NCBI GenBank assembly: GCA_965226795.1
Contig: CBDDDZ010000002.1
Coordinates: 256,001-320,000, forward strand
Length of the DNA stretch: 64,000 bases
Reading direction: 5' to 3'
Source of the DNA: Candidatus Latescibacterota bacterium
GTDB lineage: Bacteria > Latescibacterota > UBA2968 > GCA-2709665
Every line of letters begins with the position of its first letter. Position 1 is the stretch's first letter. Positions 4,974-57,765 of the stretch are shown piece by piece. Under the pieces are notes generated by a model. It saw only the letters and a list, made by a program, of their open reading frames with translations. It did not search any database and was not told the DNA's origin. Made by a program: the position numbers and the translations under genes.

Positions 4974-5946
4974 AGCTATCAGCGGTCAGCTATCAGCGGT
5001 CAGCTATCAGCGTTCAGCAAGAAGCAAAACCATCAAAACCTGCGCCTGTTGCCATTCAGCAGGGACAATTCTTGCATGGAACTGCGTTCCGGTCGGCCAC
5101 AGGCTTTACCTCTCCCATTCACTTTTATTTTCTCTTCGTCCTTTTTCTTATTCGCGTAAGAAAAAGGACCAAAAAGAACCGCGCCTGCCTGCCGAGCACG
5201 ACTCGGCGCAGGCAGGCCGCTCGGCGCGGGGCCGGTTTTTCAGCGAATTGCCTCATGAGACCGGAAAGACGATTGTGCCCTGGGTACGCGTTCGAACACA
5301 CGACGCCCCGGTGCTGAACGGAATAACGCGGAAAAACCCACCTCTCCGCCACCGATCGCGTGAGGGATAAATCTCAGGAGCGATTAAACCTTTCTGCGAT
5401 AAGAATTGCGAGTTTTTCCGTGCATTGATGTTTCTGGACGTTAAAGCGCGGAGAATCCAGTTCCACCCCCGAAGCGGGTGGCCTGTTGTTCCGGTGATGT
5501 TGCGGGACAACAGGGGACGCTTGGTGTTGGCGTTCGATGCTGATGGTGAGCGGTGCGTTTTATGCCGCGAACAGACCCCCCACACCACCGGTCGCGCCGT
5601 TGTTGTATACGTAGGGGCGACCCATGGGTCGCCTGCCTGGTGGCTCTGATGAAACCATGCCGGTATCTAACGCGATGCGTTTCGAGAGGACTACCAGAGC
5701 AGAGCGCGCGATTCCGTCCAATGCAGGGGTACGATCTGCTTCCGAGGCTGGCAGGGCAGAGTATCATGTGGATCCCGTAAGGCGATTCGCGCTGTGCATA
5801 AGGCAGGCCCCGCGCCCAGCGGCGACTTTTGGTTCCTTTTGGTCGCTTCAAAAGGAACCCGCCGGAGGAAGGGAATTTGGGGAGAGGTGGTTTTTGAATT
5901 TGGTTTTCCCCTATTGCTTTCGGCTGAACGCTGTACGCTGCCTGCT
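4974..5946 (+). mobile_element. modular structured non-coding element, copy A (heptamer array - L arm - cassette M1 - REP/M2 - R arm - heptamer array)
   Basis: L hairpin 5138-5169, 33-bp palindrome 5184-5216, GTAG REP 5611-5633, R hairpin GGTTCCTTTTGGTCGCTTCAAAAGGAACC 5831-5859. Homologous to five other intergenic loci; mobility is inferred. Confidence 0.75.
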
Positions 5947-12791: not shown

Positions 12792-13100
12792 TAGAAATCC
12801 CACCACCCCCGAACGTCCCCTATTCCCTTGCCCTTTTTCTTGTATCGCCCAAGAAAAAGGGCGAAAAAGAAGGGCGCCGCTCGGCGCGGGGCCGGTTTTT
12901 CCACGAATCTCGTCAGCGGCGTAGACAAGCAATTGTGCCCTACGTACGAATCCGGCCCCACGATGCTTCAATGCTGGACGGAACAGCGTGGAAAAACCCC
13001 CATCTCCGCCACCGGGCGGGCGAAGGATGCAACACGAGGAGCCGCGAACAACCGCGTGCGGCGTATGAATTCGTAGGGGCAGCCCTTGTGGCTGCCCACG
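12792..13100 (+). mobile_element. modular structured non-coding element, copy B (L arm without 33-bp insert + GTAG REP; no R arm)
   Basis: GCCCTTTTTCTTGTATCGCCCAAGAAAAAGGGC hairpin 12830-12862; GGTTTTTCCACG...CGTGGAAAAACC stem; REP 13073-13097. Confidence 0.75.
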
Positions 13101-14764: not shown

Positions 14765-15340
14765 GGTTGCGTTCCGGGCCTGTAAGGTCATTTCCCTTTC
14801 TCTCTTTATCCTGTCCTTCTTTGTTCTTCGTCCTTTTTCTTGTACGCCCAAGAAAAAGGACGAAAAAGAACGGCGCCGCTCGGCGCGGAGCCGGTTTTTC
14901 GGCGAATTACCCCTGTGACGGGTACGTACACTCTTGCCCTGCGAACGCGTAAGCACCCGCCGGGCAACGGCGCTAAACGGAATGGCGCGGAAAAACCCCC
15001 CACACCACAACCGTTCGCACGAGGGATAAAGCGTAGGAGCGCGGCGAACCCGTCTACAACAAGAGCTGCAAGTTTTTCCGTACAATGATGATGCTGGACG
15101 TTAAAGCGCGGAGAATCCAGCTCCACCCGCGGAGCGGGTGACCGGTTGTTCCGGGGATTATGCGGGACAGCAGGGGACGCCTGTTTCTGGCGTTCGATGT
15201 TGATGGTGAGCGGCGCGATTTTTGCCGCGAACAAACCCCCCGCACCGCTTACCGCTGATTGGTTCCTTTTGGTCGCTTCAAAAGGAACCCGCCGGAGGCA
15301 GGGAATTTGGGGAGATGTGGATGTTGAATTTGCTTTTCCG
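14765..15340 (+). mobile_element. modular structured non-coding element, copy C (L arm without insert + M1 + truncated R arm)
   Basis: L hairpin 14830-14861; M1 aligns with copy A; R hairpin 15261-15289; M2 and most of the R arm are absent. Confidence 0.75.
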
Positions 15341-19508: not shown

Positions 19509-19714
19509 GTCTCTTCGCTCCCTGAAAATCGACGACCGTTCCGGCGGATGGATACGGACTGCCGCAGCGACGGCACAATCGGCAATCGTAATGATTCCTA
19601 TTATGTCAAGCGCTGCGACGTCCCAAAACCCATTTTTGTTAATATATAACCTGGAGCGGTAAAAAGCTGACGTTTTTTCCGCCTGGTACAGAAGAGTTCT
19701 TCGAAGCGCGTTCA

Positions 19715-19815
19715 TTGAGCTTGTCGAAATGCCCGCGCTTCGCTTCCCCGACGGGTTACCTGCGCCGACCCTTCGACCCTTCGACAGGCTCAGGGACCAC
19801 AAGCTCAGGGAGCGG
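19715..19815. repeat. nested CCCTTCGACA(A/G)GCTCAGGGA repeat cluster, copy 2
   Basis: TTGAGCTTGTCGAAATGCCCGCG and CCCTTCGA-CCCTTCGACAGGCTCAGGGACCA-CAAGCTCAGGGAGCGG are shared with 2352-2580. Confidence 0.8.
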
Positions 19816-19915
19816 CGCTGCGAGGGATTCCGTTCACGCCTGACCTACGCTCTTTGCATGCGTTGCTTCCCGCCAAGCGCCCGTTGGACTCGAAGTGTTG
19901 TTCGTTTCGATTCAG

Positions 19916-23880: not shown

Positions 23881-24631
23881 CAGCCATTAGCTGTCAGCTA
23901 TCAGCTGTCAGCTAGAGGCAAAAACCCGATTCAAATTCCACATCACCCCAGATTCCCTGCCTTCGGCGAGTTCCTTTTGAAGCGACCAAAAGGAACCAAA
24001 AGTCGCCGCTGGGCGCGGGGCCGTACATATGCATTGCGCGAATCACCTCACCGGACCCACCGGATCCGCTGCCCTACCGATCGCCGAGGATACCGTAATT
24101 CGGATTGGGACGGAACAACGCGCCCTGCTTTGGTAGTGCTCTGGAAACGTATCGCGTTAGATACCGGGATGGTTTCATCAGAGCGAGCCACCAGGCGGGC
24201 GACCCATGGGTCGCCCCTACGAATACAACAACGGCGTGACCGGTGGTGTGGGGGGTTTTTCCGCGTTTTTCCGTCCAGCACAGCAGTACTGTTACATCTG
24301 ACGGGCTCGTAGGGCACCCAATTGCATTTTTTCCCCTTAGGCGATTCGCGGAAAAACCGGCTCCGCGCCGAGCGGCCTGCCTGCGCCGAGCCGTGCTCGG
24401 CAGGCAGGCGCGTTTCTTTTTGGTCCTTTTTCTTACGCGAATAAGAAAAAGGACGAAGAGAAAAACAAAGTTGAAGTGGAAGGTAAAGCCTGTGTCCGCC
24501 GGGCCGTAGTTCCAAAGGGTGCTTGTCCGCAAATGGTCGACCCAGTAAGACCCTGTGGATAATCCACAAGTGGACAACCTCACGGTAGAATTCCCAATTG
24601 TCTTTAGCTGTACGCTAACAGCTTATTGCTA
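23881..24631 (-). mobile_element. modular structured non-coding element, copy D (L arm with insert + M2/REP + R arm, lacking M1)
   Basis: Heptamer array 23881-23913, R hairpin 23970-23996, REP 24197-24220, 33-bp palindrome 24376-24408, L hairpin 24423-24454, degenerate heptamers 24606-24631. Confidence 0.78.
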
Positions 24632-50271: not shown

Positions 50272-50360
50272 TGAAGTCTCTGGAGAATTCTTGACGATAC
50301 TCCAAATTGAAACTGCGACAGGCCCGCTGATCGCTCGCCCTCAGAGTGGCATTCGCTTGT

Positions 50361-50715
50361 CAAACGCGAGGTCTTTCGCGAGCGCTCCCAGAGCAGAGCG
50401 CGTTGTTCCGTCCAGCACCGAGGATCGCCGTTCTTCCGTGGCTGGCAGGACAAAATCCCCAGTACCGTCTCCAATGGGTATTCGCGCTGTGCATATGGCA
50501 GGCCCCGCGCCCAGCGGCGACTTTTGGTTCCTTTTGGTCGTTTCAAAAGGAACACGCCGTAGGCAGGGAATCTGGGGAGAAGTGGATCTTGAATTTGGTA
50601 TTACCCTGTTTTTTTTCTTCACCCGCCGGAGGCGAGCAGCCGGGGGGAGAGGTCACGGCGTTGACGTCAACGGATTGGGTTTCCGATTCAAGCTGACTGC
50701 TGAAACTGATCGCTG
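50361..50715 (+). mobile_element. modular structured non-coding element, copy E (solo R arm + heptamer end)
   Basis: CAGAGCAGAGCGCG...ATTCGCGCTGTGCATATGGCAGGCCCCGCGCCCAGCGGCGACTTTTGGTTCCTTTTGGTCGTTTCAAAAGGAAC; GCTGACTGCTGAAACTGATCGCTG end. Confidence 0.75.
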
Positions 50716-56939: not shown

Positions 56940-57765
56940 AACAGCAGCTATTAGCCATCGGCGGTCAGCCGTCAGCTAAGAGCGAAAACCAAATTCAACA
57001 TCCACATCTCCCCTAATTCCCTGCCTACGGCGTGTTCCTTTTGAAGCGACCAAAAGGAACCAAAAGTCGCCGCTGGGCGCGGGGCCTGCCATATGCACAG
57101 CGCGAATCACGCCGCAGACGCACCGGGTACTCTGCCCTGCTAACCTCGCAGGTACTCCAATCTTCAGCGCTGGACGGAATAGCGCGCTCTGCTCTGTTAG
57201 TCCTCTGGAAAGGCGTTTTAATCGTAAATTTCATTGAGTTTCTCACCAGCGAGGAGCAATCAGTTGTCGACAGACACCCAATATTGGTTAGCAATACTGC
57301 CGCGTGATGCCTATCGCCGATGACTGCGCCTTCACGAGGGCAACCACAAGGGTTGCCCCTACAAATCCGACGATGGCCGCGTAACACGGCGATAAGAATA
57401 CCACTAATGGCCGTTTGGTGTAGGGGCGGTTCGCGAACCGCCCGCTCTTCCGCGCGGCAAAAGCACGAACCTACAAAATGGTCTTTCGCAGTCTACCTAA
57501 AGTGCGCACGGTTGTGGCGTGGGGGGTTTTTCCACGCTATTCCGTGCAGCACCGAAGCGCAATGTGTCTATAGGCGTACGTAGGTCACAATTGCCGGCCT
57601 ACTCCACTGACGAGATTCGTGGAAAAACCGGCCCCGCGCCGAGCGGCCTGCCTGCGCCGAGCCGTGCTCGGCAGGCAGGCGCCCTTCTTTTTCGCCCTTT
57701 TTCTTGGGCGATGCAAGAAAAAGGGCAAGGGAATAGGGGACGTTATGGGGGTGGTGAGATTCTAA
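56940..57765 (-). mobile_element. modular structured non-coding element, copy F (L arm with insert + unique cargo with two REPs + R arm)
   Basis: Heptamer array ~56945-56978, R hairpin 57034-57060, REPs 57338-57362 and 57420-57443, 33-bp palindrome 57647-57679, L hairpin 57694-57726. Confidence 0.78.

Follow-up and report, generated by a model that had tools for sequence, protein, structure and literature searches.

A two-type intergenic repeat in a Candidatus Latescibacterota genome, with a predicted pseudoknot-triplex head and a core probably exchanged between copies

Between an oxidoreductase gene and an HpcH aldolase gene of a Candidatus Latescibacterota bacterium, two repeat arms, L1 and R1, face each other, and the question raised by this site is whether they are the two ends of a mobile element or two versions of one folded unit, and by what route such a unit would move. 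The window, by which we mean the whole stretch of 64,000 nt analysed, covers 256001-320000 of contig C2 in genome G000 (5.41 Mb, 5 contigs). The same stretch is present in sponge metagenome runs, and the element was found in samples of other studies, whose contig pieces show 0-1 differences each; this rules out an artefact of assembly. The parts of the site and the other copies in the window are as follows.

4975-5015, no strand: tandem array of the heptamer AGCTATC/AGCGGTC, lying outside L, with similar heptamers beside R copies
5138-5183, minus (outward) strand: L1 head, with CGCG, the T-rich third strand TTCTTTTT (5171-5178) and then stem S2; predicted pseudoknot and triplex
5138-5150 with 5157-5169, minus: L1 stem S2, whose loop CGCG (5153-5156) can pair with 5180-5183
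5185-5217, no strand: optional hairpin insert of 33 nt, carried by 44/80 L heads and skipped in contigs
5216-5233, no strand: 18-nt motif GCCGCTCGGCGCGGGGCC common to L and R, with an inverse copy at 5806-5823
5234-5338, minus: L1 long stem P1 (5234-5245 with 5327-5338), closing the probably exchangeable core
5246-5248 (AAT), 5276-5281 (TGCCCT) and 5318-5322 (ACGGA), minus: L1 core anchors, seen in the sequence
5356-5591, no strand: optional middle module M, with 18 genome matches of at least 100 nt, 16 of them within 700 nt of an L arm
5611-5633, plus: GTAG-type REP palindrome between the arms, seen in the sequence
5699-5797, plus: R1 long stem P1 (5699-5708 with 5788-5797), closing the core
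5713-5717 (TCCGT), 5753-5758 (AGGGCA) and 5785-5787 (ATT), plus: R1 core anchors, seen in the sequence
5822-5858, plus (outward): R1 head, with GCGAC (5822-5826) and third strand TTTT (5827-5830); predicted pseudoknot and triplex
5832-5841 with 5849-5858, plus: R1 stem S2, loop GTCGC (5842-5846)
5859-5910, plus: R outer flank, with N-CGCCG-N', a CC-GNA-GG mini-hairpin and a G-rich tail
12814-13035, minus (predicted folding strand): L2, a repeat match with no R partner
14817-15312, no strand: L3, module M and a truncated R head, a repeat match
23947-24473, no strand: R4 and L4, an inward pair, a repeat match
50358-50577, plus: R6, solo; near-identical at the same site in the relative G008
57010-57742, no strand: R5 and L5, an inward pair; R5 is identical in the relatives G008 and G013

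Two arm types of one unit and their distribution

The first-pass annotation had described L and R as diverged inverted copies of one folded unit, and the motifs it quoted are in place: L1 has its hairpin at 5138-5169, GCCGCTCGGCGCGGGGCC at 5216-5233, a stem strand at 5234-5245, ACGGA at 5318-5322 and the complement at 5327-5338; the inverse arrangement, R1, lies at about 5699-5858, and R5 reads as quoted at 57034-57200. The homology itself was borne out against shuffled controls. With a profile of L cores, 29/30 R cores scored above the best of 300 dinucleotide shuffles, and with a profile of R cores, 67/73 L cores scored above the best of 730; the heads exceeded the best shuffle by cross-type profile in 28/30 and 52/73 cases. 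L and R have different sequences in the long stem P1, yet its strands pair in both. In L, 9.73 of 13 positions are Watson-Crick pairs against 8.51 (maximum 8.80) after partner swap (n = 133), in R the values are 8.50 against 8.03 (maximum 8.19; n = 84), and compensatory columns are present in P1. The profile and partner-swap tests together agree with the earlier view that this is not a plain terminal inverted repeat but one ancestral folded unit whose stem sequences were swapped. The shared consensus fold fared less evenly, as P1 pairs in both types but plain RNAalifold on 9 arms missed it. Single-sequence folding gave z-scores of -3.3 to -4.5 for L1 and -0.2 to -1.2 for R1, which alone folds no better than shuffles.

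G000 carries 109 near-full arms (79 L and 30 R), of which 108/109 are intergenic by gene calls made in this analysis, and no orientation bias relative to neighbouring genes was seen among the 109. There are 24 inward pairs, all of them L+R, against 2.75 expected, a number never reached in 2000 shuffles; like-with-like inverted pairs and outward pairs were not found in G000 (0). Arms also occur singly, beyond the L+R pairs, and 61 are unpaired. Counted by head motif, an L partner lies beside 28/32 R heads, while 48/80 L heads stand alone, with no R remnant within 1.3 kb. The L+R pairs are 380 to 822 nt long. In the 2.18 Mb around the skew switch of contig C5, which we infer to be the terminus, 5/109 arms were found against 44 expected; a replichore strand bias (65 vs 44) was not convincing. 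REPs are present in 20/80 arm-bearing intergenic regions against 19/646 others of at least 400 nt, a comparison in which the arm-bearing regions are the longer ones, and many other repeats crowd these regions.

The repeat was found in 14/14 genomes of the same genus and in 19/21 of the family, and among 168 genomes of the phylum the head pattern is abundant only in genera g1 and g2. An R-like head pattern is far more widespread: an estimated 5600 stretches of the GTDB collection match it, and 119 loci among the matches listed belong to Proteobacteria, Bacteroidota, Bacillota, Spirochaetota and Latescibacterota and to one Nitrospirales record, that is, to at least five named phyla. The same R head is carried by a Ca. 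Latescibacterota record (L143), and R-like heads occur in culturable Pseudomonas, Parabacteroides and Mucilaginibacter. Plasmid sequences gave no match to the repeat.

Several parts vary around this plan. The heptamer tandem, which shows a 14-nt slip in sample X4, is a neighbouring repeat outside the fold. Module M is absent from one strain contig. L-R deletions join at or beside the shared 18-nt motif; at two places in G000 (C2:673554-673722 and C3:636924-637360), L and R heads are fused by such a deletion at or beside the inverted motif. A separate CGTC-type repeat (CCCTTCGACAGGCTCAGGG family) forms two clusters in the window, at 2411-2567 and 19708-19819.

Predicted fold of the head and the folding strand

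The first-pass annotation placed a hairpin at the end of each arm. The hairpin is there, but it appears to be part of a larger structure, a pseudoknot with a mirror-image third strand. In L heads, the hairpin loop pairs with bases past the A-tract (C-G in 57 and G-C in 18 of 79 copies), and the head is predicted from such covariation to be an H-type pseudoknot. A pseudoknot stem of 4-5 bp can form in 168/180 L heads. Among 113 unique cross-phylum heads, which are not independent because Pseudomonas is over-represented, the pseudoknot stem had a mean of 4.03 bp against 1.73-1.78 in two controls, and 60/113 heads had a stem of at least 4 bp against 10.8 in controls; 94 metagenome heads gave 3.55 bp against 1.52. 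A second pseudoknot (GGGGC/GCCCT) suggested by RNAalifold was dropped, as it showed no compensatory changes.

Read along the outward strand, the linker is rich in T and forms a mirror image of the pyrimidine strand (for L, TTCTTTTT against AAGAAAAA; for R, TTTT against AAAA), and in both types this third strand matches the purine tract in length and in the position of C. The pattern fits T·A-T and C·G-C triples, a predicted triplex signature. The direct test of the third strand is weaker than the pseudoknot test: the mirror form was found in 44 viral stretches against 16 for a direct-repeat control, with partial redundancy (39 vs 14 unique). In 71/113 heads, against 15.8 in shuffles, another stem begins immediately behind the head, and AA comes next in 56. 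Its counterpart in R, the N/N' pair of the outer flank (5859/5865), is complementary in 98/98 copies with four pair types.

Related motifs were seen in viral sequences. Six viral contigs (L391-L396, 4.4-5.8 kb) have an A/T mirror-triplex motif amid TTTTCAACA repeats, and L391 is a microvirus (capsid F, Rep) whose copy of the motif (L391:1653-1679) lies in non-coding DNA following the Rep gene. Several viral contigs (L052, L054-L056, L058-L063, L067, L068 and L071) have inverted doublets, about 100 nt apart, of a variant that lacks the loop (T-tract, GG, short T/A hairpin).

Which strand folds was judged from wobble pairs. With a search pattern that accepted either wobble polarity, we counted T·G 34, C·A 0, T-A 58 and C-G 10 on the T-first strand of 102 heads, and mismatches in the R P1 stem agree with the heads in polarity (31 vs 6). 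The L P1 stem has no wobble bias (54 vs 51), which counts against a fold of the outward strand. These counts suggest that the outward strand is most likely the folding one; given the T·G excess there, the inward strand from which the arms had earlier been read is probably the non-folding strand. As counter-evidence, a similar mirror motif without pseudoknot in the two microvirus genomes checked has its polarity reversed relative to the coding strand, the T-first form being on the non-coding one.

The earlier proposal of a single-stranded DNA or RNA fold can be narrowed, as mini-hairpin counts favour DNA. GNA triloops are DNA-specific stabilisers. C-GNA-G mini-hairpins on the head strand numbered 136 vs 17 in one count and 72 vs 21 in a second, and GCGNAGC 87 vs 8, while GNRA tetraloops were more mildly biased in the same two counts (63 vs 35 and 42 vs 23). 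The folding molecule is thus more likely to be DNA than RNA. Within G000 the GNA excess is confined to the outer flank of R (32 vs 0), and, as a point against, cores of Latescibacterota had no GNA bias (27 vs 30; 6 vs 6).

Counter-evidence comes from the Rfam family TwoAYGGAY, described as "probably RNA": in 4/20 loci searched (3/20 above the gathering threshold) it matches the body of the Pseudomonas version, on the head strand and 5' of the head, without covering the head itself. In the window, Rfam families including TwoAYGGAY gave 0 matches. In assembled contigs, pile-up at heads was no higher in RNA runs than in DNA runs, which speaks neither for nor against expression. A terminator or promoter role was rejected, since no promoter-like site was seen and terminator-like sites were at chance level, and no tRNA or tmRNA was found.

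Core exchange and arm-centred transfer

The stretch enclosed by P1 had been called a variable spacer. It is instead a cassette of fixed length, about 75 nt (75-76 nt in 96/103 R copies), likely exchanged between copies. Among 104 R copies, divergence is 9.5% in the outer part and 34% in the inner one; seven R pairs whose outer parts are identical have inner parts at least 20% apart, and in three tandem R units 6-7 of 190 outer positions differ against 32-60 of 150 inner ones. Sister tandem units carry dense substitutions without indels. When same-site pairs between G000 and relatives were compared, the cores fell into two classes (n = 55): 17 differed by less than 10%, 3 by 10-25% and 35 by at least 25%. 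Because only the outer flank served to define a site in this comparison, independent insertions may account for some of the 35 "replaced" cores.

Donors can be named for some cores. The core at locus L300 differs at 31/75 positions from the G000 copy at its own site and at 4/75 from a G000 copy at C5:66156; that at L303 has 32 differences from the own-site copy against 8 from a copy elsewhere, and one core pair crosses over mid-core. Window arm L5 and its G013 counterpart (locus L228) differ by 1/20/1 in head/core/tail, and among the copies compared the nearest to either core is 16-17 of 75 away. Several replaced cores have no close donor among the copies compared, which counts against exchange.

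In-place change is equal in head and core (59/1702 and 54/1500), and transitions and transversions are balanced among close pairs (342 vs 353). The R cores of G000 are star-like. Neighbouring G013 copies carry near-identical cores, so copying can be faithful and need not be mutagenic, and obligatory hypermutation at copying was ruled out by the same cores. Adenine bias in core substitutions was not seen. A coding remnant was likewise rejected, with no codon periodicity and no frame open in most copies, and three ORFs over arms had no Pfam match. These comparisons indicate that cores are likely exchanged between copies by recombination.

A similar patch was seen beside another element. At L291:1950-3840 in G013, an 887-bp tandem unit is near-identical except for an L arm and a patch of about 150 nt that are densely substituted, and this patch, directly 5' of a BoxC-type triplex, has 31 of about 200 positions substituted. 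A swap or mutation zone may be general to triplex heads.

Comparison with relatives bears on movement. At the L1/R1 site, relatives among the matches listed have no L+R unit, and two carry a different R. At 11 filled/empty sites, 16-38 bases are replaced by 309-1069, with no target duplication and no fixed ends, in a comparison where species divergence could blur short duplications and one site is listed twice. Of two further comparisons, one is a tandem unit and the other the loss of L5 from G008 by a deletion whose end falls within the purine tract; in G013 the core of L5 is replaced.

Where the core was retained, it is strikingly similar between species: at most 1 of 75 positions differs in 14/20 cases (11 loci; G008 and G013), against 18/123 alignable 75-nt arm-free intergenic windows that are as similar (G008 only, whose third codon positions differ by 11.4%). 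The near-identical tracts measure 96-977 nt with 0-14 differences, are centred on arms and include spacer and REP DNA, and the adjoining 300-nt flanks are less than 96% identical in 22/28. In samples X12 and X14, R5-L5 shows 2 differences in 547 nt against 14-15 in about 516 nt of flank, the contig pieces being assigned to one strain by similar depth only. The alignments fit best with recent arm-centred transfer between species; clonal frame or selection could instead account for the near-identity. The genomes are mosaics whose syntenic blocks are about 78-98% identical. Both ComEC and DprA occur, but these are common proteins and only permissive for transfer.

Known systems, partner enzymes and competing explanations

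The closest likeness in the available text on BoxC/PIT/TM repeats (PMC4666352) is an intergenic, multi-copy hairpin with a homopurine strand and a mirror third tract, which our sequences resemble; these repeats, too, often form inverted pairs, have no strong strand bias and no linked transposase, and occupy loci that vary between strains. BoxC itself is G/C-rich, about 36 nt long and read there as a purine-motif (class II) triplex, whereas the heads here are A/T-rich, do not match the TM consensus CCCTCNCCC-N-GGGNGAGGG-N3-GGGNGAGGG, have a wobble polarity pointing to the pyrimidine-motif strand and are attached to a 200-nt stem-and-core unit. True BoxC-type repeats exist separately in G000. 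The heads here are also predicted to be closed by loop pairing, and the word "pseudoknot" is absent from the available text of that paper. According to the same text, BoxC is found at variable loci and acts as a block to DNA polymerase in vitro, and Holder et al. (2015) saw no stable BoxC triplex in vivo (PMC4666352), which counts against an explanation driven by the fold.

The accessible descriptions of REPIN/RAYT and BIME mosaics (PMC3116915, PMC3337134) share with this repeat inverted doublets, a variable spacer constrained in length, folding of single-stranded DNA and tandem clusters, and the GTAG REPs between the arms give a REPIN-like setting. REPINs as described there have like REPs at both ends, unlike the two diverged 200-nt types found here, where most L arms are single; RAYT genes were not flanked by arms, and there were no like-with-like inverted doublets. 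The combination of terminal inverted repeats and target-site duplication that marks a MITE was not found at the 11 filled/empty sites. Neisseria dRS3/NTS with SsnA and NIME arrays, in the portions of PMC11893778 and PMC3184786 at hand, likewise place a conserved repeat that folds as single-stranded DNA beside variable DNA, linked to recombination and transformation, and this likeness provides a working model for the mechanism here. NTS is described as a 28-nt hairpin flanking a GIY-YIG gene (PMC11893778, in part), whereas the small GIY-YIG genes inspected here lack these heads. TwoAYGGAY (RF01731; PMC2864571, available part) matches the Pseudomonas body just 5' of the head and not the window, and P. 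fluorescens R-families such as R200/R26 (PMC2718517) may correspond to the Pseudomonas version. BRE was rejected because its sequence differs from this head. In the part of the PMC3110155 supplement seen, Betaproteobacterial BRE tandem junctions have a G-tract, a T-tract and a T/A hairpin with a C-tract loop; judged by eye, such a junction could be an analogous pseudoknot-triplex.

Diversity-generating retroelements (DGRs) also place a short hypervariable segment of fixed length beside an invariant one. They were rejected here on the lack of adenine bias, the non-coding core and the lack of a reverse transcriptase match within several kb of an arm. In its workings the repeat resembles a BoxC-type triplex repeat set within a BIME/NIME-like mosaic, and in our tests it fell outside the BoxC consensus, REPINs, MITEs, Ssn, DUF559 cassettes and DGRs. 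No description of a pseudoknotted head or of core exchange was found in the literature outside subscription papers, the original BoxC/PIT papers and picture-only supplements.

The first-pass annotation took the kept architecture for that of a fold recognised by a protein; the search for a partner enzyme was negative throughout. Apart from repeats, nothing came up repeatedly beside the heads across about 250 cross-phylum and about 140 genus loci. In 251 cross-phylum loci, only 127 of which reach 3 kb, tblastn gave nothing with proteins of the DUF559 (one), RAYT (two) and GIY-YIG (two) families, and we found neither a gene enclosed by arms nor a four-helix-bundle family. RAYT was present in 8/15 genus genomes with the query used, and 0/17 Y1 loci carried a head. 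Among 29 GIY-YIG loci, arm matches were found in 3 only, all of them long (>600 aa) frames, and the small genes inspected carry CGTC-type repeats. DUF559 does not track heads: it was not found with the query in 5/14 head-bearing genus genomes, and it was found in 4/16 genomes of genus g6 with 0-1 head matches.

RAYT, small GIY-YIG and DUF559 genes of the genus, when flanked by repeats, have other kinds beside them. CGTC-type repeats flank small GIY-YIG (Ssn-like) genes and GTAG REPs flank RAYT genes (L533-L536, L541, L530, L532). G000 has 62 CGTC-type motif matches, yet tblastn with two small GIY-YIG proteins found nothing there; this absence is weak, since the search missed even the long GIY-YIG protein of most relatives. 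The DUF559 gene of G013 (L292:3450-4800) has tandem G/C BoxC-type triplexes on both sides and lies about 700 nt from an L head, and the G000 copy (C4:674650-674931) is missing its start and keeps one degenerate repeat. At L002:580-3231 (G000 C2), a Y1/RAYT domain lies in frame inside a long DNA-methylase-like ORF, in two copies.

We tentatively prefer to read L and R as diverged types of a single non-coding intergenic repeat, predicted to fold as a single-stranded DNA pseudoknot-triplex and likely to spread and swap cores by homology-directed recombination. The outward strand would fold when exposed in a replication gap or in incoming transforming DNA, and the head would stall polymerase or be cut by a trans-acting single-strand nuclease to give a recombinogenic end. 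With the conserved head and tail as homology anchors, the core, a whole arm or an L+R composite could then be copied from another copy in the same cell or a related species, and near-identical L-L or R-R inverted pairs would be purged, leaving L+R pairs only. Exchange and transfer appear in the alignments themselves, while folding, stalling and cutting are proposed by analogy with BoxC (PMC4666352) and NTS/SsnA (PMC11893778), as given in the accessible parts of both papers. Against a recombinogenic fold, no linked nuclease or transposase gene was found. It is doubtful, if still conceivable, that L and R are instead the ends of a non-autonomous REPIN- or MITE-like element moved as single-stranded L+R DNA by an unlinked HUH or other transposase, with core swaps secondary. 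Pairing speaks for such ends (24/24 inward pairs L+R vs 2.75 expected; an L partner for 28/32 R heads), as do sites empty in relatives, co-occurring REPs and REPIN spacers that likewise keep length over sequence (PMC3116915, available part), yet 48/80 L heads alone, pairs of 380 to 822 nt and ends not conserved between insertions do not fit, and neither do RAYT in only 8/15 genus genomes (query used), 0/17 Y1 loci with a head and the lack of an enclosed gene. A bolder form of the recombination reading, which we consider unlikely, would make a pan-bacterial DNA pseudoknot-triplex the recognition signal of a homing system without its own transposase; the signal would set off recombination, by which arm patches invade the same intergenic site in neighbouring species and swap fixed-length cassettes genome-wide.

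RNA triplex pseudoknots have a U-rich linker that crosses stem 2, and the repeat could likewise be a structured RNA in transcripts, a telomerase-like pseudoknot with U·A-U triples that protects or binds RNA and is spread passively. Wobble pairs suit RNA equally, TwoAYGGAY matches the Pseudomonas body on the head strand and GNRA loops are mildly enriched; we still find it quite unlikely, because the arms have no orientation bias, no promoter-like site, terminators at chance and no Rfam match in the window, GNA triloops exceed GNRA, and core exchange would be left unexplained. Very unlikely, in our judgement, is that the core is an addressed or actively diversified cassette, under per-locus selection or rewritten in error-prone bursts beside the head. 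Such a cassette would suit retained cores far more conserved than their flanks, star-like R cores in G000, dense indel-free substitutions in sister tandem units and nearly equal transitions and transversions (342 vs 353), but the identical tracts take in spacer and REP DNA, neighbouring G013 cores are near-identical, donors exist, DGR-like adenine bias and codon periodicity are lacking, and head and core change equally in place. That the family is old and inert, shuffled by ordinary ectopic and interspecies recombination with a fold of no role, would agree with the lack of an enzyme, the mosaic genomes (blocks of about 78-98%) and the crowded repeats of the same regions; compensatory changes, found in both head and stem and not only inside the genus but also between phyla, and a core of 75-76 nt in 96/103 R copies make it highly improbable.

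For the recombination reading that we prefer, the interest of the family lies in a matter open since BoxC was described, namely how triplex-type bacterial repeats are made, kept and spread. The family offers a fold backed by cross-phylum covariation, a strand assignment, and comparative evidence of cassette exchange and arm-centred transfer, and these data define oligonucleotides and donor constructs that can be tested. The repeat also explains a class of spurious ORFs read across arms. Should the fold prove real, it would give the RNA pseudoknot-triplex a naturally occurring equivalent in DNA, and the repeat may show how enzyme-less triplex repeats spread.
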